A stretch of 64,000 nucleotides of DNA, from the NCBI GenBank assembly GCA_964106645.2, contig OZ067044.1, one strand, 5' to 3'. Origin of the DNA: Podarcis pityusensis (lineage: Eukaryota). Below, one piece after another: positions 4,082-58,100 of the stretch (its first letter is position 1; every line of letters begins with the position of its first letter). Position numbers and translations under genes: made by a program. The notes below the pieces were generated by a model. It worked only from the letters and a program-made list of their open reading frames with translations, was not told where the DNA came from and did no database searches.

Positions 4082-4416
4082 CTGTGGGTTAACCACAAAA
4101 CCTAGGGCTTGCCGATCAGAAGGTCAGTGGTTCGAATCCCCGCAACGGGGTGAGCTCCCATTGCTCAGTCCCAGCTCCTGCCAACCTAGCAGTTCGAAAG
4201 CACATCAAAGTGCAAGTAGATAAATAGGTACTGCTCCTACGGGAAGGTAAACAGCATTTCCGTGCGCTGTTCTGGTTTGCCAGAAGCGGCTTAGTCATGC
4301 TGGCCACATGACCCGGAAGCTGTACGCCAGCTCCCTCGGCCAATAAAGCGAGATGAGCGCCGCAACCCCAGAGTCGTCTGCGACTGGACCTAACGGTCGG
4401 GGGTCCCTTTACCTTT
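4082..4416 (+). mobile_element. Sauria SINE (slightly 5'-truncated)
   Basis: B box GGTTCGAATCCC, core CCAACCTAGCAGTTCGAAAGCA...GTAGATAAATAGGTAC...CATGCTGGCCACATGACCCGGAAG, ACCTTT tail; close match to the copy at 14606. Confidence 0.92.
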
Positions 4417-14605: not shown

Positions 14606-14933
14606 TAAACTACAGAGCCTAGTACTTGCCGATCGGAAGGTCGGTGGTTCGAATCCCCGCGATGGGGTGAGCTCCCGTTGCTCAGTCCCTGCTCCTGCCA
14701 ACCTAGCAGTTCGAAAGCACATCAAAGTGCAAGTAGATAAATAGGTACCGCTCCGGCGGGAAGGTAAATGGCGTTTCCGTGTGCTGCTCTGGTTTGCCAG
14801 AAGCAGCTTAGTCATGCTGGCCACATGACCCGGAAGCTGTACGCCGGCTCCCTCCGCCAATAAAGCGAGATGAGCGCCGCAACCCCAGAGTCGGTCATGA
14901 CTGGATCTAATGGTCAGGGGTCCCTTTACCTTT
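14606..14933 (+). mobile_element. Sauria SINE (5'-truncated)
   Basis: Same diagnostic blocks as 4082-4416, with ACCTTT tail. Confidence 0.92.
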
Positions 14934-16186: not shown

Positions 16187-16320
16187 GTGCTTCTCAAACT
16201 TGGGTCCTCAGCTGTTGTTGGACAATACCTCCCATCATCCCTAGCTAGCAGGACCGGTGGTCAGGGATGATGGGAGTTGTAGTCCAACAACAGCTGGGGA
16301 TCCAAGTTTGAGAAACACTG
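16187..16320. mobile_element. Short palindromic hAT-like MITE
   Basis: TTCTCAAACTTGG...CAGCTGTTGTTGGAC...CTCCCATCATCCCT mirrored by AGGGATGATGGGAG...GTCCAACAACAGCTG...CCAAGTTTGAGAA. Confidence 0.8.
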
Positions 16321-47444: not shown

Positions 47445-48550
47445 AGCAAGCCAGCCAAACAGAGCCACTAGCACAAGGCTTTTCACCTGTGCAATGGAAC
47501 TGATCCATGTACACCATGCACCCTTCCCAGATCTGCTCAATAGGGCTGGGGGGGGGGGGACCCAGAGCAGTTACGGTGTCCATATATATATATATGACAT
47601 CTGGTTTTTGGTTCATACAAACACTCGAGGGAGAGGAGAAACTCCTCCTCTTTGCAACACAACCGGCAACAGCAATAGCAGCAGAAATGAGTATACAGGT
47701 GAAATGGTTCACTTTATGTGGGAACTATTTAGTATACAATTACCACAAAAACAAGACTAGTAGAATGTTAGCAAGGAAAAAAATGATTTCTGTTGCCACA
47801 TTAACAAGGCCTCGAAAAGCATCTACACTAGTCATTCCCTGAGGCAGAGGGCATCTGCAGCTCTGCACAATTTTGGCTAAATCTGCAGCACAGATTTTTA
47901 AATGTTTTCCATTTATTTTATTACAACTTTTTGCAAAGCCTTATGTTTGATGAGGAAACAGTGGGTATGTTATTGTTCACAGTTTTGCTTGTTTAAAAAG
48001 GAAACACTCACTTTTCCAAATAGCTTCCCCTTGCCCCCACCTCCTGATGCCATGTGGAAATAGTCAGTCCATTTAAAAACTTAGAGCATGCAATGAGCTA
48101 GAGAGAGGCAAGGCAGCAGGATGGAAGCAAAAGGGTCCCTTTCCCCATCCATATGGTTCAGGTTTGCATCTTGTCTGGCATGATAATGTGATAGTTGGCA
48201 GAATTCATGTTTAGAGTCTCAAGCAAATAACAGCCAATAAGTTGTAGGTTTAATATGCACGTGGAGATGTTCATAGTATTCCAGACTGGCTGATTCTACA
48301 GCTGCAGTCAATCCAAAGTTGCTGCATGAATCCTTGTACAATGGAATCCCTGATGGTGAAAGTAAACTGGAGGCCCTACCCTGATGTAAGTATCCCCCAT
48401 CTGCTGCACAGGTGTAGCCTAAGTAGTCAATCAGGATATGTAACATGCATTTGTAAGGAAAGTGGAAAATTAAACTGTATGCATTTCCTTCCTTCCCTCT
48501 TCCTATCCACATTATTTCACAAAGAAATCAGGGAAATTCATAAGCACTGT

Positions 48551-49312
48551 TGTCAGAGCTGCTTCCAGATCCTAGCTCACAGAGGATCACGCTAGCCAGC
48601 GATCATTAAATAAAAGTCTTTATTGAGTTACAGTTTCCATTCTCAAGCTGCTGCGTGCAACTCTACGTCTCATGGTTAGATCGGCGAAGCTCCATCTGAG
48701 TCTCCGCCCCTTGTACACCAACTTAATATCCTAGCCTTGCTCCACCTTTTCCGCCTGACTGTTCTTCTCTGGGTCCCTCTGCCCCCCGGGGTCTCTTCCT
48801 TCCGGGATTCCTCTGACGCTGACGCTGACCCCCCTGACTCTTCTCCCTCCTTTCGGCGGGCTTTAGGACCTGGCTCCCTTTCCGGGCTGCCTACTGCGCC
48901 ACCTTCCTGTGCATTTGAACTTGGCACGCGTGCCCAACCTTCCACCTTCCGTCTGACCGTTTCTTCGCTCCCCGATGGAGGTGTGGCCACTCCTGACTCG
49001 TGCCCTCCCCCCTGTTGTGAGCTGCCAGCGCTTGATCCCTGGCGCCCTTCCTCTTCCCTGCTCTCTGGCGGTGACGCTGGTCCTGATTTCCAACTGCTCC
49101 CCTCTGAGTCCCCTCTGGCTCTATCTTCCTGGGGTGTCCCCCTAGGCTCCCCCCTTGCCCTGGCCACTGGTGCTCCTTTCTGTGAATCTTCTGATTCACT
49201 GGAAAGACTCGGAGATCTCGGGTCGTCGTCATCACTCATCTTTTCTTCTGCCTCCTCTCCCTCGCTCTCTGTTTCCTCCCTTGCCCTTGCCTCTGCTCCT
49301 GAACCCCTGACA
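48551..49312 (-). repeat. 3' LTR
   Basis: Direct repeat of 54362-55123; preceded on the minus strand by a polypurine tract. Confidence 0.97.
48619..48624 (-). terminator. Polyadenylation signal AATAAA in the R region of the 3' LTR (copy at 54430-54435)
   Basis: TTTATT on + strand, about 50 nt after the pol stop and about 70 nt before the LTR end. Confidence 0.75.
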
Positions 49313-50865
49313 TCCATCCCCCCCTCGAAGCCCCCTCTTCCCCCCTCCCCTCCTTCCGGTGCGGGATCTGGGTGCTGCCGTGTCAGGGGGACGAATGTCG
49401 GATACAGTTCGCTTCCCGTGGCGGGCCGCCATCCAAAGTCTTCCGGTTCTTCCTCCCTGCTCTCGTTGACGACGGTCACCTCCGCTTCCATCTCTGTGCC
49501 GCCGTGCTCGAAACCCGGGTCGTCCCCGAAAACGTCCATGTCCGTCTCTCCCTCGTTGCCTTCTGGAGACGTTGCTCGTCCTGGACCCTCCAGCCACCTT
49601 CTGCGGAACTGCTCCTCTGGTCGATCATCCCACCAATACGAGGGTTCTGAAGCAGATCCCGAGGGTGACCCCTCTGGGGAACGGGCGTCTCGTGTCGGTT
49701 CCTCGTCCGAGTCGAACCCCCGGAACGTGCTGGCTGAAAGCGTGGGCGTGAAAAGCCAGTCGTCGAAAAAGTCTGCTGGCATTGGCCTATGTGGGAAGAG
49801 GGCATGAAACTCTTCTTTGAGCAGAGGTTCGTCTAAAGCGTAGCCCGGCACCCAGCTGTTGGCACTGGCCGGGGTGCCCTCCTTGGCGAGAAGGTATTCT
49901 ACCCCCTCTTCCCCCCATCTGGAGTCCAAAATCTCCGTGACTTCGTTGATGCGCTCCTCCTGTGCCACTCCCCCTTGCCCGGTTCTCTCTCGGAGCGGAC
50001 CCGGTGCCGTTCCTGGTTCCTGAAACCTGTGAGGTGCCTTGTAGGGAGTGAGCACCGATCTGTGGAACACCGGATGCATTCTGGAACCCTCCGGAAGAGC
50101 CAGCCTGAAAGCCACCGGGTTGACCTGTTCGTCGACTTGGTAGGGCCCCAGTTGTTTATGCCCTAGTTTCTTCTTCGCCAACGACCTGGCCGGCACTGCG
50201 TGGGCTGCTAACCAGACCCAGTCTCCCACATGGATCTCTTCGCCAACCCTTCTGTGTTTGTCCGCTTGTACCTTGTATGCGTGTTTAGCCAGCTCCAGGT
50301 GCCGCCGCAGCTGATCGTGGACCTCCTGCAACTCCGACGCGAACGCATCTGCTGTCTGCGGCTCCCCCTCCCCCATTCTTTCCAGTCCCGGGAAGGTTCT
50401 AGGGTGCCTCCCGTTGTTGGCGAAGAACGGCGTGACCCCCGTGGACACGTGCTTCGTGTTGTTGTAGGCGAACTCGGCGAGAGGCAGGTAATCCACCCAC
50501 GTCGCAGGCTGTTGATTCGCATAACATCTCAGGTACTGCTGCATGATGGCATTGACCCGCTCCGCTTGCCCGTTGGTCTGCGGGTGTCTAGCCGACGCCA
50601 GGTTGATCTTGACGTTCAGGAAGCCCATCAGCCTCTGCCAGAAGTTTGAGATGAACTGTCGCCCTCGGTCGGACAGAATAGACCGCGGCAGACCGTGAAC
50701 CTTGAACACGTGGTCTATGAACAGTTTGGCGGTTTGTTCCGCCGTGGCCACCTTCGCACACGGAATGAAATGTGCCATCTTGGAGAACAAATCCACCACC
50801 ACCAGCACAGCCGTCTTGCCCCTCGAGCTGGGCAGATCCGTGACAAAGTCCAGGGCCACTCTCTC
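48676..50865 (-). pseudogene. pol: Pol part 2: integrase DDE core, GPY/F motif, degenerate chromodomain and ~370-aa acidic tail; in frame with part 1 but cut off by one stop
   Basis: Minus strand reads CCA TGA GAG AGA GTG GCC CTG GAC (P*ERVALD) where Gypsy IN has PW; LDFV, SDRG, NGQAERVN catalytic residues; LGPYQV...HPVFH; ORF 48676..50859 is 727 aa. Confidence 0.93.
49313..49326 (-). other. Polypurine tract GAGGGGGGGATGGA
   Basis: Immediately precedes TGTCAG of the 3' LTR on the minus strand. Confidence 0.9.
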
Positions 50866-53247
50866 TCATGGCTCGAACGGAGTTTGCAGCGGTTCCAGCA
50901 GTCCGGCCGGTGGTCTGTGCACTGGTTTGGACCTCTGGCAGGTGTCACACCTCGCCACGTAGTCCGCGACTTCCCCTCTCATTCCGGGCCACCAGAAGTC
51001 TCTGGCTACTAATTCCACCGTCTTCTCCTTGCCAAAGTGCCCGGCAGTGGGCGCGTCGTGCAGCTGCTGCAGTACCTTGGCGCGAAGTTCGTCTCCCGGC
51101 ACGTAGATGGCCCCTTTACAGATGAGCAAACCATCTCGCAGCTGGAACTCGTCGGTCGCTGCCGTGCCCCTGTGCACCTCTGCCATCTTTGCTTGCGTGA
51201 AGGAGTCATCCTGCAACGCTCGTCGCACCGCATCCAGGTCAACTGTTGCCGCCGCGCACGCCCACACTGTCGGTGCGAAGATGTGCATGGCGGCCGCTGG
51301 CGTTGCCTCCTCCAGATACTGTGGCTTACGGGAGAGAGCATCCGCCATGATGTTGGTGTCCCCCGGGACATACTCTATTCGGAAGTCGAAATTCGCAAAG
51401 AACTCAGCCCAACGTATCTGCCTCTGGTTCAGGAACTGTGCCGTGCGCCAGTGCTCTAGATTCTTGTGGTCCGTGCAGACCTGCACCGTGTGCTTGGCGC
51501 CGATCAGGAAGTGCCTCCACGCTTTGAACGCTGCATGAATGGCCAGCAACTCCCTGTCCCAGATGGTGTAGTTCTGTTCGGACTTGCTGAGCTTCCTTGA
51601 GTAAAACGCTCCCGGCCTCCAAACCCCCTGCGGGTCTTTCTGCAGCAGGACTGCTCCCACGGCTCTGTCCGAAGCGTCTGTCTCCACCCTCATCGGCCTG
51701 CTGGGGTTGACATGAAGCAGCTGCTCTTCCGACGCGAAGAGACGCTTGAGTGCCTGAAAGGACTGCTCCGCCTGCTCTGTCCAGATGAACTTCTTTTTCT
51801 TGGAGCTGAGCGTGTCCGTGATGGCCGCTGTCTGCATCGCAAAGCCTTTGATAAACTTGCGATAGAAGTTCGCGAAGCCGACAAACCGTTGGACCTCCTT
51901 CCGGTTGCGTGGGCTTTTCCAATCCAACACTGCTCGGACCTTGGCACTGTCCATGGCGAGCCCTTTATCAGACAACTTGTAGCCCAGGAAATCCACCTCG
52001 GTCACGTCGAATTGGCACTTCTCCAGCTTGGCGTAAAGCCTATGTTGCTGTAGCCTGCTCAGCACTTCCTTGACGTGTCTGTCATGCTCCTGCTGCGATT
52101 CCGAAAAGATCAGGATGTCATCCAAGAAACAGACGCACGTCTTGTAGAGGAGCCCCGCCAACACGTGATGCATGAAAGCTTGAAAAACGTGGGAGCCATT
52201 TTGCAATCCAAAAGGCATAACTCTATATTCGTAGGTGCCCAGGGGCGTGAACATGGCTGTCTTCCACTCATCTCCCTCCCGCATGCGAATGAGGTTGTAT
52301 GCCCCTCGCAGGTCCAACTTGGTGAATACTCTGCCCTTCCGTACCTTTGCGAGGAGGTCGTCGATTCGGGGCATGGGGAAGTCCGATGGCTTGGTCACAT
52401 TGTTCAAGATGCGAAAGTCCACTACAAGTCTTTTTTGGGGCGTGTCCCGCTTCTTAACAAAGAATACCGGACTGCCCCCCGCTGCCTTGGACTCTCGGAT
52501 GAAACCGCGCTCCAAATTATGATCTATGAACTCTTTGAGTTCCTGCAGTTCGTCCTCAGACATGGAATACAGCTTCCCTTTGGGCAGCGCCGCCCCCGGC
52601 AGCAGGTCAATTTTGCAGTCATATGGTCTGTGGGGGGGTAGCCTGTCTGCCTCTTTCTCGCAGAAAACCTCCAAAAATTCTGCGTACTTGTGGGGAACCG
52701 CTTGCAGCGTGCCTAGCTGCAGCTGTGACTCCTCTTCCCCTCCTTCCTGCCTGGGCACGATGCAGTGTTCAGCGCAAAAGGAAGAGCCGAAGGTCAGCTG
52801 CCTCTGGTACCAAGCCAGCGTCGGGCTGTGCTTGTCCAGCCAACTCATGCCCAATACAATGGGCGTGTCCGATAGTTGAGTGACATTGAAGCTGATGATT
52901 TCCCTGTGATTCCCAAGTCGCATCACCATTGGTGGCGTCTGCTTCACCACTTGCCCCCCTAGCAGCTCCCTGCCATCCACCGTGACAACCTGCAGGGGCA
53001 GCGTGGCAGGCAGCAACTGTATAGCGTGCCGGTCGACAAAGTCCTGCCCTATAAAGTCCGCATTGCTTCCGGAGTCAATGGTGATTGGCACGTCCATGGT
53101 GATTCCATTGGGCAGCTGGAGCGACGCGGTGAGCTTCACTACCGGTTTGGGCGGGAGGGGGTCCATGGGCTGTAAAATCTCTGGGGACTGCTTCACTGAC
53201 ACGTCTGGCTGGGCCCCAGTGCCTCTTCCTCCAACCAGACTCCTTCG
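50866..53247 (-). CDS. pol: Pol part 1: aspartic protease, reverse transcriptase, RNase H and integrase zinc-binding domain; expressed as Gag-Pol by -1 frameshift; ends at a premature TGA
   Basis: ORF 50866..53331: IDSGSNADFI (protease), KLDLRGAYNLIR / MPFGL / CFLDDILIF (RT), VETDASD...RELLAI...TDHKNL (RNase H), HDAPTAGH...CDTC (IN HHCC). Confidence 0.95.
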   Translation of the reverse strand, partial: RRSLVGGRGTGAQPDVSVKQSPEILQPMDPLPPKPVVKLTASLQLPNGITMDVPITIDSGSNADFIGQDFVDRHAIQLLPATLPLQVVTVDGRELLGGQVVKQTPPMVMRLGNHREIISFNVTQLSDTPIVLGMSWLDKHSPTLAWYQRQLTFGSSFCAEHCIVPRQEGGEEESQLQLGTLQAVPHKYAEFLEVFCEKEADRLPPHRPYDCKIDLLPGAALPKGKLYSMSEDELQELKEFIDHNLERGFIRESKAAGGSPVFFVKKRDTPQKRLVVDFRILNNVTKPSDFPMPRIDDLLAKVRKGRVFTKLDLRGAYNLIRMREGDEWKTAMFTPLGTYEYRVMPFGLQNGSHVFQAFMHHVLAGLLYKTCVCFLDDILIFSESQQEHDRHVKEVLSRLQQHRLYAKLEKCQFDVTEVDFLGYKLSDKGLAMDSAKVRAVLDWKSPRNRKEVQRFVGFANFYRKFIKGFAMQTAAITDTLSSKKKKFIWTEQAEQSFQALKRLFASEEQLLHVNPSRPMRVETDASDRAVGAVLLQKDPQGVWRPGAFYSRKLSKSEQNYTIWDRELLAIHAAFKAWRHFLIGAKHTVQVCTDHKNLEHWRTAQFLNQRQIRWAEFFANFDFRIEYVPGDTNIMADALSRKPQYLEEATPAAAMHIFAPTVWACAAATVDLDAVRRALQDDSFTQAKMAEVHRGTAATDEFQLRDGLLICKGAIYVPGDELRAKVLQQLHDAPTAGHFGKEKTVELVARDFWWPGMRGEVADYVARCDTCQRSKPVHRPPAGLLEPLQTPFEP

Positions 53248-54269
53248 TTTCCCTGCTGTGGTTGTCCTTGCTGCGTTGCTGCAGTTACCATTGCTGAGGC
53301 TGCAGTGTGCTTGTGGAGCCTCTGGGGACACTCTTTCGCCATATGCTGTGGATCATCGCAGATGTAACACTTCCTGTTCCCTCTAGGAGGCTTCGCTTTC
53401 ACTGCTGCCGGTGCTAGGGCTCTGGCTGCTGACTGAGCCCTTGCACCTCCAACCTCCATAGGTTCCGCTCCTCCTCCTGGCGGAGGCGTGGATTGCGCAC
53501 GCGCTGCTTCTCTGGGAAGGAAGGAGGAGCCCCTGGCTGGTTCGCGCCCTCCACGCCCTTCGTCCCTGCTCCACGGACGTCCTTCCAGCCGCACCCCCAC
53601 CGCCAGCGCCCTCTGAACGATCTCCTGCGTGGTCCGGGGTCTCTCCCCCCTCGCAATTTCATCTTTAACCGAGCCGTGCAATCCCTCCCAAAACAGGTCT
53701 CTTACAGGAGCCGAATCTCTGTCCCATTCCAGGGCACTGACCAAAGCGAAAAAGCGGGCATGGTACTGCCTTACGCTGGCCCTCCCTTGCTTCAGTCCAT
53801 GTATCTCCTGCCGAGCAAGATCCACGTCAATGCTTGATAAAAAGCACCCATCCATCGCTTTAATAAAGGCATCCGCATTTTGGAGCGCCGGATCCTTATC
53901 TCTCCACAAATTGCGCAGCCATGCTTTAGCATCTCCATGCAAATGGGACATGATGAATCCCACCTTCTCTTGCTCATCTCTAAAGTCTTTGTTCAGCAGT
54001 TGCAGTGCACACATTACATCTGCTCTAAAGTTGGGGTACTGTTGCAAATTCCCATCGAAGTGAGAGACCAGACCGCCTGTTCGTCTCCCCAACCCAATCC
54101 CCTCCGGTTTGGGTGTCAGTTGCCCTTGCTTCGTAAGCACTTCCAACCTGACCTGGAGATCCCTGTAGGCGGCAGCTGCGTCCTCCTCTCTCTTCCTGGA
54201 TGCAAGAGCCTCGGCATTCAGTCGTGTCACTGCTTCTCTGAGTTCCACTATCTGCTGTTCGGCCGTCAT
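53193..54269 (-). CDS. gag: Gag polyprotein (358 aa from ATG MTAEQQ...): N-terminal coiled coil, retrotransposon capsid, CCHC zinc knuckle
   Basis: Within ORF 53193..54341; first ATG at 54269 in AACATGA context; capsid-like LKQGRASVRQYHARF...FWEGL; knuckle CYICDDPQHMAKEC. Confidence 0.93.
   Translation of the reverse strand: MTAEQQIVELREAVTRLNAEALASRKREEDAAAAYRDLQVRLEVLTKQGQLTPKPEGIGLGRRTGGLVSHFDGNLQQYPNFRADVMCALQLLNKDFRDEQEKVGFIMSHLHGDAKAWLRNLWRDKDPALQNADAFIKAMDGCFLSSIDVDLARQEIHGLKQGRASVRQYHARFFALVSALEWDRDSAPVRDLFWEGLHGSVKDEIARGERPRTTQEIVQRALAVGVRLEGRPWSRDEGRGGREPARGSSFLPREAARAQSTPPPGGGAEPMEVGGARAQSAARALAPAAVKAKPPRGNRKCYICDDPQHMAKECPQRLHKHTAASAMVTAATQQGQPQQGNEGVWLEEEALGPSQTCQ
53194..53253 (-). 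other. Programmed -1 ribosomal frameshift signal: G GGA AAC heptamer plus downstream pseudoknot
   Basis: GGGAAAC at 53253-53247 is in XXXYYYZ phase of gag with pol in the -1 frame; 6-nt spacer; stem GUCUGGUUGG/CCAGCCAGAC; loop CACUGG can pair with downstream UCAGUG. Confidence 0.88.
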
Positions 54270-54348
54270 GTTGTCTGCCGTTCGTGAGCTCGCTAGTAGG
54301 CACCCGCTTTCTCTCCTCTCCGCGAGGACGTAGATGCCCACAATCTAG

Positions 54349-54359
54349 AGATGGAGCTT
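54349..54359 (-). promoter_or_regulatory. Self-priming primer-binding site (AAGCTCCATCT), not tRNA-type
   Basis: Starts 2 nt after the 5' LTR end; lacks the TGG start; exact reverse complement of AGATGGAGCTT at 54508-54498 in the LTR. Confidence 0.85.
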
Positions 54360-54361
54360 AC

Positions 54362-55123
54362 TGTCAGAGCTGCTTCCAGATCCTAGCTCACAGAGGATCA
54401 CGCTAGCCAGCGATCATTAAATAAAAGTCTTTATTGAGTTACAGTTTCCATTCTCAAGCTGCTGCGTGCAACTCTACGTCTCATGGTTAGATCGGCGAAG
54501 CTCCATCTGAGTCTCCGCCCCTTGTACACCAACTTAATATCCTAGCCTTGCTCCACCTTTTCCGCCTGACTGTTCTTCTCTGGGTCCCTCTGCCCCCCGG
54601 GGTCTCTTCCTTCCGGGATTCCTCTGACGCTGACGCTGACCCCCCTGACTCTTCTCCCTCCTTTCGGCGGGCTTTAGGACCTGGCTCCCTTTCCGGGCTG
54701 CCTACTGCGCCACCTTCCTGTGCATTTGAACTTGGCACGCGCGCCCAACCTTCCACCTTCCGTCTGACCGTTTCTTCGCTCCCCGATGGAGGTGTGGCCA
54801 CTCCTGACTCGTGCCCTCCCCCCTGTTGTGAGCTGCCAGCGCTTGATCCCTGGCGCCCTTCCTCTTCCCTGCTCTCTGGCAGTGACGCTGGTCCTGATTT
54901 CCAACTGCTCCCCTCTGAGTCCCCTCTGGCTCTATCTTCCTGGGGTGTCCCCCTAGGCTCCCCCCTTGCCCTGGCCACTGGTGCTCCTTTCTGTGAATCT
55001 TCTGATTCACTGGAAAGACTCGGAGATCTCGGGTCGTCGTCATCACTCATCTTTTCTTCTGCCTCCTCTCCCTCGCTCTCTGTTTCCTCCCTTGCCCTTG
55101 CCTCTGCTCCTGAACCCCTGACA
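54362..55123 (-). repeat. 5' LTR (U3 ~55123-54509, R/U5 ~54508-54362)
   Basis: Matches 48551-49312 at offset 5811; I found only two mismatches (48931/54742, 49070/54881); TG...CA termini. Confidence 0.97.
54503..54540 (-). promoter_or_regulatory. LTR core promoter: TATA-like TATTAA (54539-54534) and Inr-like TC-A(+1)GAT, predicted TSS 54508
   Basis: 31-nt spacing from TATA to the first base of the PBS-complementary 11-mer. Confidence 0.7.
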
Positions 55124-58100
55124 ACTGTTTTGTGCAGATTTCTTCTGTCCAAATGGCTTGAATGACAGGAAGCATGGATACATTAACAAATCCACACTAT
55201 CAATGTCTGAATGGCATTACCTGTAACCAGCAAGCAAGTGCGTACATTCAAACATTGGAAAGAAGTCTGTAGTACAAGAAGCTCTTCCTTTCCCTTCCAC
55301 AATGCCTTGGAGGAGTCTTTCCCCTTTCCTTTCTCATTATTCTTAGCTCCTTTGGCTAGGTAATATTACGAAGTGCACAAAGCATGGGTGCCAATTCCCT
55401 GGGGCCCTGGGTGTCAGAGCATCCACAAAATTCCCCTTGAAGGGGCGAGGCACCTACAAATTTTGGTGCCAGGGCCATGTAGTCTGCATGGCACTCACAG
55501 TTGTGGGGGCCAAGCTGGCACTCCTGCTACAAAGTCTACTGCAGGCTTCACGCCTACATGGTGCAGCACTAATTGGCATTTAGTGGATATACAGACATTC
55601 TTGTGATCAAGGACTGTGCATACTATAAACCAGTGGTGGACAATTAAATGGTCTATGGTTTGAGCATTGCCCAGTTGATCTAATACACAATGCCAGATGT
55701 CCATATATCTTGTGAGTCTGCTGTGAATCATACTATTTGTGCAGTTGTACAATTGTCTAGCAAACGAGTAGGGCAGTGAGGAATATAAAGCAAAAAAGAA
55801 ACAGACATACCTAGATACAGACATAATCTTCTGTACCACACTGTGTGTGTATGTGTGTAAGGCACATAAAGGATGTAATAATCTCTGACATGGATATAAT
55901 GAAGGTGCAGAAAGTTGAACAGATGGAAGGAGCACTGGATCATGATCAATTTCCTTTATGTCTTCTACATTTTCAACCTATGTGTAATAAACGTGTATGG
56001 CAGGCACATGTTTAATTAATAATGCGGTACATTTATAGGTAGACCAAATATATTTCATAAGATAGAAAACCGTCACAATGATGTGCAACAAAATGTATGT
56101 GATATCCTCTAGGCAGGTATTATTTAAGTGCTTTGAACTTACCAGCCAAGACCAGTTCAGAAGAAAGAAGTCAATGCAAAGGAAACCGTGGCTACAGCTG
56201 GACTTTGGCCACTCTACTGGGCTTCTCAATGGAACATGAGGTACCTGCAGACAAGGGAAAGGAACAGACTTGATTTTGCTGTCTCTGTCTCTGGCAGCAA
56301 CGTTGCCCTCTGCAATCGGAGAAAGGCAATGTTATGAAGAACTGTGGTCCAGCCCACTTCCCATTCCCTTTCTGTCCTTTAGTCCATACAGGGGCCACAA
56401 TGGTCATTGTAGGTCTCTCGTTTCTAGGGTTCCCCATCCCAAATGTACCTCTCAGTTATAGGATACATCTCCACCTAGTGGTACAATTTTCCCCTTACAA
56501 AGCACACAGTGCATGCTCATTCTGTGATGTGTGAAGCAGCCCACTGTTCAAAACTGGCAAGAGATATTCTTCATAGCAGAAGGCAGATAGATAGAGACAC
56601 ACATATATCTGATCTGTAGAATATTCCTTTTTGACCCCAAGATAGGAACTGTACGACATGACAGAAAGTGTCAGAATCTTTACAAAAAATAACTCCTTTA
56701 AAAACAAAATAAATAAAACTATCAACAAGAATAGCAACTGCTCAAATTTTATCTCAGAGCTGCCAAGATGTGAACATTCATGGGAGAATGTTCTGTTGTT
56801 TTCAATGTTCTGTTGTTCACAAGGTGGACACAAATGCATACAGTTGGATGCTGACAACTTGACACATGTCTAATGAATCTAAAGCATGTGCACACACGCA
56901 CAAACACACAAATTTACTAGGACTAAAAAAAACCCTTAAAAAAACAAAAGCCCTGCCAAACAAACCACTTCAAGAAGATTTAATAGCCATGTAGGTTTTT
57001 GTGTACCTTAAAATACCATAGATGCTTTGTTAAAAGTGACAGTTAACATCTGTGTTGAAGATGCTACATTCTAACAGAGTGAGCTGCCGTTTGTTGAGTC
57101 CAGTGAGCAGATGTTGGAGGCCTAATGCATTGGTGACAAAAGGCTACAGTGCTTTAACCTTCCGCATCGCTTCTGTCTAACACACAGCAGAAAAGGTTTT
57201 AATTTGACAGGTTGGCTGGGATATAGAGAATTCAGCTTTGGCCACCTACAGAAGGGCCAAATCTAGTCATGAGAACAGTAGTGTGGGGGGAATGAAGCAG
57301 CGGGTGAGAGTAGTTTGTCATCTTGCACTAAGTGGAGAGCTACATATACTGTTTATTTCTACAAAGATTTAAAAGGGTTCCTATTGGAAGTTAATTAAGC
57401 AATTAAGCCGATTTGTCCTTTAATGTGCAAGGAAATATTTGAGTAAGGTGAGCTGGAAAAGGAGTCAGCAGCTCCTAGCACATTTTGCCTGTGCAAAATG
57501 TTTTAAACGCCTTTTTCTCCCTGTGGTTGGGATGATGCAAGAGAGGAGAATTAAAATGAATGCACAGCCTAATGGCAATTCTCATACAAGCTGCATGTAA
57601 ACAGAAACATCAGCACAAAACTTATGAATCTTAATTTGTGCCACTGAGCTAAAATTTGTATCTTTCTGCATTAAAGGAATATAGACATACAGCACTGTGT
57701 AGTGTCTACTTGCAATACAGAAAGCTGACATGGTCTTTCCAATTTATGGGAAAATTGACATAATTTTGCAAAAAAGGGGGGTGGAGAGGGAGAGAGAAGC
57801 AAAACCACTTGTGAACTAGATTTTGCATAATGGGATTAATTTGGTTGACTGTCACATCAGCTATGCTGTAGAATGCAAGTTAATCACAACATCGATATGA
57901 TTTTTAAAGAAGAAAGAAAAATAGGGGGAAAGGGAGGAAGAAAAGGTATTTTCCTCCCTTGTCTGATTCTCCTTTCATTTTAAAATACTTCCCATTTCTA
58001 CTGTTATGTGGAGGTGCTATGACAAATAATGGAAGTCTGTTTTGCATTGGGCCCAAGAAGACTGAAATGAGCTAGAGCCGGCCTCACTCTGGTAAGAAAA

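Follow-up and report, generated by a model that had tools for sequence, protein, structure and literature searches.

HIV nef and MMTV sag have coding sequences that overlap the U3 region of the long terminal repeat (LTR), and both are separate genes carried on spliced RNAs. Among plant chromoviruses, the Pol frame has been described as running into the 3′ LTR in CRM group A and in some beet chromoviruses (PMC3059260; PMC3605345), and self-priming is given as a group trait of the Tf1/sushi group (V-clade, Tcn1) (PMC6317226). Ty1 and Ty5 are reported to target integration via short motifs in disordered integrase tails, Ty5 reaching heterochromatin through a phosphorylated motif (PMC9673352), and for Tal1 the integrase C-terminus was reported to decide centromere targeting, with tail swaps moving Tal1 into or out of centromeres (PMC11735389). 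On the host side, the TND-interacting motif has been defined as a helix, an acidic or phosphorylated linker of 8–16 residues and an FxGF, the last being present in every known partner of LEDGF and HRP2, which are described as readers of H3K36me2/3 in active genes (PMC9987994), and a D/ExExFxGF consensus has been given (PMC8022399; 10.1101/624023). Invasion of satellite arrays by gypsy elements has been presented as common across eukaryotes in a paper whose text mentions neither "lizard" nor "Podarcis" and whose supplements may cover lacertids (10.64898/2026.09.17.752431). For vertebrates, the homing of retroelements to centromeres and telomeres is an unsolved problem.

Here, we analysed a 64-kb stretch of Podarcis pityusensis DNA, referred to as the window, and compared its sole full LTR element with related copies in the same genome. 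This element (48551–55123, minus strand, as are all element features given below unless noted) is a self-priming Ty3/gypsy chromovirus with 762-bp LTRs, and its Pol frame continues for 371 codons beyond the chromodomain, of which 211 (212 with the stop) fall within the 3′ LTR.

Structure of the element and its open reading frame

The 5′ LTR (54362..55123, TG...CA) and the 3′ LTR (48551..49312) differ at 2 mismatches, and a 5-bp target-site duplication (55124..55128, partner 48546–48550) encloses the element. The self-priming primer binding site (PBS; 54349..54359) is the complement of the 11 nt at the start of R, and the PBS pairs over 10–11 nt with the element's own LTR in 20/23 copies, the pairing changing in step across families. 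Because the 11-nt self-primer at 48697–48687 pairs with the PBS (54359–54349), the transcript likely starts at about 48697, as a first-pass annotation of the window had predicted, and the same bases (48687..48697) double as codons of the tail. The gag region (53193..54269) encodes a capsid and a zinc knuckle, and pol comprises protease, RT, RNase H and the integrase zinc finger (50866..53352), the integrase core with an SH3-like domain (49945..50865; Pfam rve and SH3_Tf2-1) and a chromodomain (49792..49944). Pfam matches were obtained for gag, protease, RT, RNase H, integrase and the SH3-like domain, and the match to the chromodomain was weak (Chromo, E 0.018, at residues 308–354 of the ORF). 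The domain order PR-RT-RH-IN with a C-terminal chromodomain agrees with the criterion for Tf1/sushi-group chromoviruses. Within the gag/pol overlap, sequence reading predicted a frameshift site, a heptamer (53247..53253) of the XXXYYYZ pattern that we take to be of the −1 type; its phase is correct for a −1 shift, and tail output would then be limited to Pol levels. The family is young, very abundant and currently active: its near-identical copies number at least 1,150, the count of exact assembly matches to an internal 26-mer, and make up ~0.5% of the assembly. Compared with the window, 29 sister loci have 6–12 substitutions over 2,950 nt.

The stop-to-stop ORF of the window copy (48676–50865, 729 aa) extends past the chromodomain through the polypurine tract (PPT; 49313..49326), which is translated in frame, and the coding part of the 3′ LTR (49312–48676, 211 aa and stop) to a TAA at 48678–48676, located 22 nt into R; an AATAAA poly(A) signal stands at 48619..48624. 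These results agree with the first-pass annotation, which had described Pol as open for ~370 aa past the chromodomain through the PPT and U3, with ~212 codons in the 3′ LTR, an end ~20 nt into R and both remaining sense frames of U3 interrupted; the latter contain 3 and 7 stops in the LTR part. The sense strand of U3 has only 10% T, and the odds of such a frame on this T-poor strand were assessed by shuffling: the given frame stayed open over the whole tail in 2/5,000 dinucleotide shuffles and 8/5,000 shuffles of 150-nt blocks, and over the LTR part alone in 49/5,000. A chance frame, which the annotation had named as what would overturn its reading, is thus not expected for the whole tail.

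The window copy carries an in-frame TGA (50868–50866) between the integrase zinc finger and core, which is present in 0/29 sister loci; because it precedes the core, this private stop leaves the window copy unable to make the tail as part of Pol. The TATA box annotated under codons RILS does read TATTAA in this copy, whereas the position reads TCTTAA or TCTTGA in subfamilies B–E (see below), and a canonical TATA is therefore not conserved. An antisense frame (48680–49807, 375 aa) is also open in the window copy. It was rejected as a shadow frame that shares third positions with Pol, being open in subfamily A only and having 1–3 stops in 11/11 other copies; its dN/dS was 0.30.

Related families in the same genome

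Diverged homologs were used to search the same genome, and the search yielded subfamilies B, C, D and E beside subfamily A of the window, the LTRs of B and A having ~68% DNA identity. The A–E copies compared all have an equivalent stop, reached after 212, 218–219 or 225 LTR codons and followed by 125–126 nt. Among A-type ends sampled regardless of frame, 15/18 reach the same stop, one has a premature stop and two are interrupted. At one locus (L174:1547–1672), an upstream repeat matches just the final 126 nt of the 3′ LTR, i.e., the part after the stop.

Homologous proteins were found as Podarcis models at 87% and 51% identity and on one contig at 54%, and 10 proteins were obtained when 1.84 billion cluster representatives were searched; the ORF is already in UniRef, as automatic models. 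Through the distant proteins (41–47% identity), families F, H, I, J and K were identified in the same genome; they have LTRs of 370–440 bp, and their intact copies read ~70–111 codons into the LTR. In family F, 17 among the 20 best matches are open to the end; older copies frequently carry stops or are frameshifted close to the PPT. G runs upstream of the chromodomain (B copies; loci L031–L060) and the PPT (F copies; loci L136–L139) are frameshift hot spots, and these frameshifts are either true slippage or homopolymer errors of the assembly. Across the read-through families, the tail measures 163–384 aa and its motifs are conserved. In an integrase tree with one fish and four other sequences as outgroups, all 18 read-through rows formed one clade (100/99), with A–E as a long-stemmed subclade.

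Protein searches, whose limited coverage favours annotated genomes, returned no named non-lacertid protein with the tail. Ten non-lacertid matches had no FxGF in the compared stretch after the chromodomain, and nine of them were short-tailed. Two non-lacertid chromodomain elements (P0147 and P0148) read a near-identical peptide across the PPT and LTR start and ~35–40 codons beyond, which suggests that a short read-through is ancient. An ESM Atlas search gave a best score of 0.80 and no lead. No host exon was recognized among 127 flanking ORFs of at least 75 aa, with one match below the cut-off and short exons liable to escape. The flanks in the window also contain a dispersed two-copy repeat (4091–4390 and 14608–14907, 91% identical) and short inverted-repeat elements (1466–1597 and 16187–16318).

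Coding selection on the LTR part

Pairwise dN/dS was calculated with the NG86 method on six real copies, which had been picked for open frames. In the LTR part, dN/dS was 0.17–0.28 in 13/13 diverged pairs (dS 0.44–1.69), with bootstrap upper bounds of at most 0.41 in every one of them; two close pairs had values of 0.16 and 0.05. Between the chromodomain and the PPT, dN/dS was 0.19–0.44, whereas the integrase core gave 0.07–0.09 in diverged pairs, and the strongly conserved chromodomain 0.01–0.12. Three controls that need no protein alignment were consistent with these values. Subfamilies A and D, compared without indels, showed a dN/dS of 0.26 in the Pol frame; the two remaining sense frames gave 0.85 and 1.63. 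In a frame-blind DNA alignment, the mismatch at codon positions 1/2/3 was 0.19/0.22/0.41, third positions varying about twice as much as the others, and this pattern was absent downstream of the stop in the same DNA-only alignment. Moreover, the offsets between exact anchors were multiples of 3 in 22/22 cases in the coding LTR vs. 1/3 after the stop. The agreement of these controls with the NG86 values points to coding constraint on U3, as the annotation had proposed.

The coding part of the LTR measures 637–676 nt, with differences that are multiples of 3. For the indels, the expectation that their lengths keep the frame was borne out by the anchor offsets and not by raw DNA gap counts, of which 16/62 were multiples of 3 at one setting, in alignments that are noisy at ~68% identity. 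Blocks of the tail are unevenly kept, with 13–16/20 residues retained in motif blocks and 3–4/20 in poor blocks. Taken together, these sequence comparisons show that the LTR-encoded tail is under purifying selection at the protein level.

Motifs and predicted structure of the tail

In a fragment model, the chromodomain alone folded (pLDDT 81–91); the rest of the tail was modelled at low confidence, as would be expected if it is disordered. A profile search grouped the chromodomain with HP1 proteins. With the methyl-lysine cage residues defined according to PMC3605345, the chromodomain of the window lacks all three cage aromatics, and those of F and H retain the middle Trp.

Directly after the chromodomain, there is a short helix-like stretch, followed by a linker of 8–9 residues and FxGF (49714..49776 in the window, with an 8-residue linker), which forms a candidate TND-interacting motif of the LEDGF/HRP2 type. 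Three Phe and one Gly, namely the anchor Phe and those of FxGF, do not vary among 15/15 copies with 22–78% identity to the window; the helix element appears in the monomer model as a 3-residue helix at low confidence. The F, H and I copies match D/ExExFxGF exactly and have two motifs each, and the linker is acidic in F, H, I, J and K. Subfamilies A–E have one motif with a Ser/Thr-rich linker, and the window subfamily, in which the second motif has been lost, is off the strict D/ExExFxGF consensus. The motif pattern, fixed after the data had been viewed, occurred in 3/20,000 shuffles. A comparison of the motif profile with the PDB returned no solved TND ligand and one unrelated match (E 0.12). 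The genome has two LEDGF-domain genes, one being PSIP1 and the other likely HDGFL2. As a candidate only, the helix-linker-FxGF arrangement fits the TND motif that binds LEDGF/HRP2, and the Ser/Thr linker of the window subfamily would need phosphorylation for binding of the TND type.

The tails of every family end with a basic cluster and a hydrophobic-x-W motif (48715..48768 in the window), the W being present in 12/12 copies compared. Conservation of this end may be partly at the DNA level owing to its overlap with the core promoter. Pfam gave no match in the LTR-encoded part. A CENP-C-type motif, described as an Arg anchor 8–10 residues before a paired aromatic (WW) (10.1101/705699), was considered and rejected: an Arg is found 8–9 residues before the W, yet the aromatic is single.

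Genomic location of the copies

On C1, the sole chromosome listed in full, 24/64 A copies are located within 1 Mb of an end and 40/64 on the arm, the copy of the window likewise being on an arm. A 145-kb satellite block (C1:138,882,000–139,027,000; 505-bp monomer, 38% GC; loci L180–L183 and L202–L212) contains 12 A copies, that is, 83/Mb vs. 0.29/Mb on the arm, a ~285-fold difference. This block has sharp borders and is interrupted for the most part by A, D, E and C elements nested in it; it contains 19 element-satellite junctions at no fewer than 10 monomer positions and in both orientations, and shows nested insertions together with at least one ~7-kb duplication. Young, near-identical copies in the C1 satellite have distinct target duplications, and the excess ends abruptly at the satellite border. 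Genome-wide, 1,187 exact matches to the satellite motif were counted (~0.05% of the assembly); all those on C1 are confined to its last 0.8 Mb, and the satellite lies near an end of 11 chromosomes as well as inside C19. Since acrocentric chromosomes are described for most Lacertini (PMC10654178), the subterminal 505-bp satellite is a candidate centromere. Satellite-flanked loci numbered 4/30 for A, 7/30 for C, 2/30 for B, 1/32 for F and 0/12 for H.

Twenty chromosome ends (20 ends from 11 chromosomes, chosen mostly for known satellite) were sampled, and 12 of them had A–E sequence within the last 6 kb; among the telomere-capped ends sampled, including that of C1, 7/8 had an A–E element within 6 kb. 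Within 0.5 Mb of an end were found 7/33 A, 22/71 B, 3/13 C and 3/57 F copies, against an expected 1.2%, in counts that exclude C19 and unplaced contigs. Family F keeps two canonical motifs yet is less end-enriched; it is also older, and age is confounded with tail type. The clustering points to chromosome-end chromatin generally, beyond centromeres alone, and can be inflated by weak purging, nest duplication and assembly breaks at young repeats. A young short-tail family taken as a control had just 4 copies and was uninformative.

Several further observations were made at these places. Elements and solo LTRs occur a few hundred bases to 3 kb from telomere repeats (loci L242, L246, L248, L249, L251, L254 and L190), and a few insertions adjoin interstitial TTAGGG runs (L043, L078 and L227). 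At the end of C7 and the start of C12, a truncated B element adjoins the telomere array, possibly the trace of a break that was healed. C19 (38 Mb, 2.5% of the assembly) holds 32/90 F matches and 24/101 B matches but only 2/40 of the youngest A, and it may be the W chromosome.

Discussion

In the reading that we consider probable, the ORF is a C-terminal integrase tail of 371 residues that is under selection, is written over the PPT, U3 and the start site, and likely acts as a disordered tethering module that steers integration to chromosome-end chromatin. U3 is able to code because each genomic RNA carries one copy of it at its 3′ end. Pol would be produced via a −1 frameshift and the tail retained on integrase after processing, where its short motifs (helix-linker-FxGF, Ser/acidic patches of the CK2 type, and the basic cluster with W) may bind host chromatin proteins. 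They may thereby replace a chromodomain bereft of its methyl-lysine cage, and the tail would cause the choice of target site. The partner of FxGF would most likely be the TND of LEDGF or HRP2. HRP2 binds silent chromatin. Since the active-gene marks read by LEDGF/HRP2 mismatch the clustering at chromosome ends, FxGF and clustering may be separate functions; FxGF may serve insertions on the arms or general tethering, with the LTR-encoded part driving the clustering at ends. A wider reading is offered tentatively, as less likely than not: the LTR of this vertebrate clade would be a targeting gene, the integrase tail would mimic the host TND-interacting motif and so bind LEDGF/HRP2, a tether that lentiviruses reach by another fold, and the LTR-encoded part, expanded in A–E, would home new copies to telomere-adjacent and centromeric chromatin, so that the elements would now be building lizard centromere regions in convergence with CRM.

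A real integrase extension could instead serve nuclear import, particle assembly or solubility, the clustering then being due to the chromodomain or to copies having been lost unevenly. Such a role is unlikely but deserves serious weight, as the basic cluster at the tail end is kept in all families, the chromodomain folds and is conserved (dN/dS 0.01–0.12) and so retains some function, many copies are found on arms, and nested duplication occurs. However, the ~285-fold excess, the distinct target duplications and the sharp satellite border are hard to obtain by retention alone; the cage aromatics of the chromodomain are missing, and import needs no invariant helix-FxGF motif. The first-pass annotation had spoken of an integrase extension or an accessory protein and had likened the frame to the retroviral nef and sag. 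Pol continuity and selection favour the extension. The FxGF motif, the clustering at chromosome ends and the private stop of the window copy had escaped that annotation. A tail released or made separately as a nef/sag-like accessory protein, possibly from solo LTRs, is improbable: its length and composition do resemble those of disordered accessory proteins, and protease cleavage after the chromodomain is compatible with the sequence, but the frame runs on from Pol without a break in all families examined, and the nearest precedent is CRM rather than a retrovirus. The internal ATG proposed for a solo-LTR product, at KMSDDDD, encodes an unconserved Met, and the start site of the LTR itself is downstream of U3; a solo-LTR product is not supported. 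Furthermore, no splice joint was found in three raw RNA runs from a related species, which were shallow and mostly covered other subfamilies; RNA reads from a related species cover the element on both strands, mostly at 88–95% identity, and are weak evidence of expression.

Somewhat less probable again is a frame that stays open in order to give a short 3′ UTR and so evade nonsense-mediated decay, the amino acids being of minor importance. It would account for a stop 20–25 nt past the start of R in 18/23 copies tested, for a 3′ UTR of <100 nt and for tail blocks retaining 3–4/20 residues; mere openness, though, predicts a dN/dS near 1, whereas the value in the LTR is ~0.25 and motif blocks keep 13–16/20 residues. 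Escape from decay is largely refuted as the sole cause but may come as an added advantage. On a T-poor strand (U3 10% T), chance leaves the LTR part open in ~1% of shuffles, but the 2/5,000 obtained for the whole tail and the frame-specific selection across families leave this explanation with next to no probability, and the comparative results refute a chance origin.

The LTR is a clear example of a single sequence that acts simultaneously as protein code, primer, attachment end and promoter. The lizard element provides an active family with a defined candidate targeting tail and short motifs, together with older, shorter-tailed sister families for comparison. A literature search, with Repbase and most subscription journals and supplements outside its reach, found no report of the tail, of a TND motif in a retrotransposon or of the clustering in lacertids. 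Lentiviral integrases bind the same TND via a folded core. A TND-binding motif in a retrotransposon integrase, if true, would mean that LEDGF/HRP2 tethering arose twice and by different means.

Compared with known systems, the lizard U3 frame differs from nef and sag in being the end of Pol, with no separate conserved start. The candidate motif resembles those described for KMT2A, JPO2, IWS1 and JIL-1, with a short helix, an 8-residue acidic or Ser/Thr linker, FxGF, an acidic flank and a disordered setting (PMC9987994; PMC8022399; 10.1101/624023), although the latter are host proteins. With Ty1 and Ty5, as described in PMC9673352, the element shares an integrase tail that is long, probably disordered and equipped with short motifs, CK2-type sites and basic residues of NLS-like type; Ty1 and Ty5, however, belong to Ty1/copia, have their tails inside pol and not in the LTR, and use Pol III AC40 and Sir4 as partners. 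The domain order, the chromodomain, the 11-nt self-priming PBS and the 5-bp target duplication are those of the Tf1/sushi group (PMC6317226), from which the lizard families stand apart by a tail of 163–384 aa with conserved motifs, 9/10 non-lacertid matches being short-tailed. On the other side, the closest likeness in layout is to plant CRM group A, likewise described as chromoviruses whose Pol runs into a 3′ LTR that encodes a putative targeting region (PMC3059260; PMC3605345) and whose copies concentrate in satellite-rich chromatin. In contrast to CRM as described there, which is tRNA-Met primed, the lizard element has a vertebrate host, primes itself by pairing of the PBS with its own R, keeps its chromodomain upstream of the PPT and shows no likeness to the CR motif in its LTR by Pfam, and its frame spans all of U3 and crosses the start site. 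Whereas CRM is concentrated at centromeres, the lizard copies are dense in the subterminal 505-bp satellite, a candidate centromere, and cluster beside telomeres too. The lizard element is not a member of CRM, and its tail is likely convergent with that of CRM.
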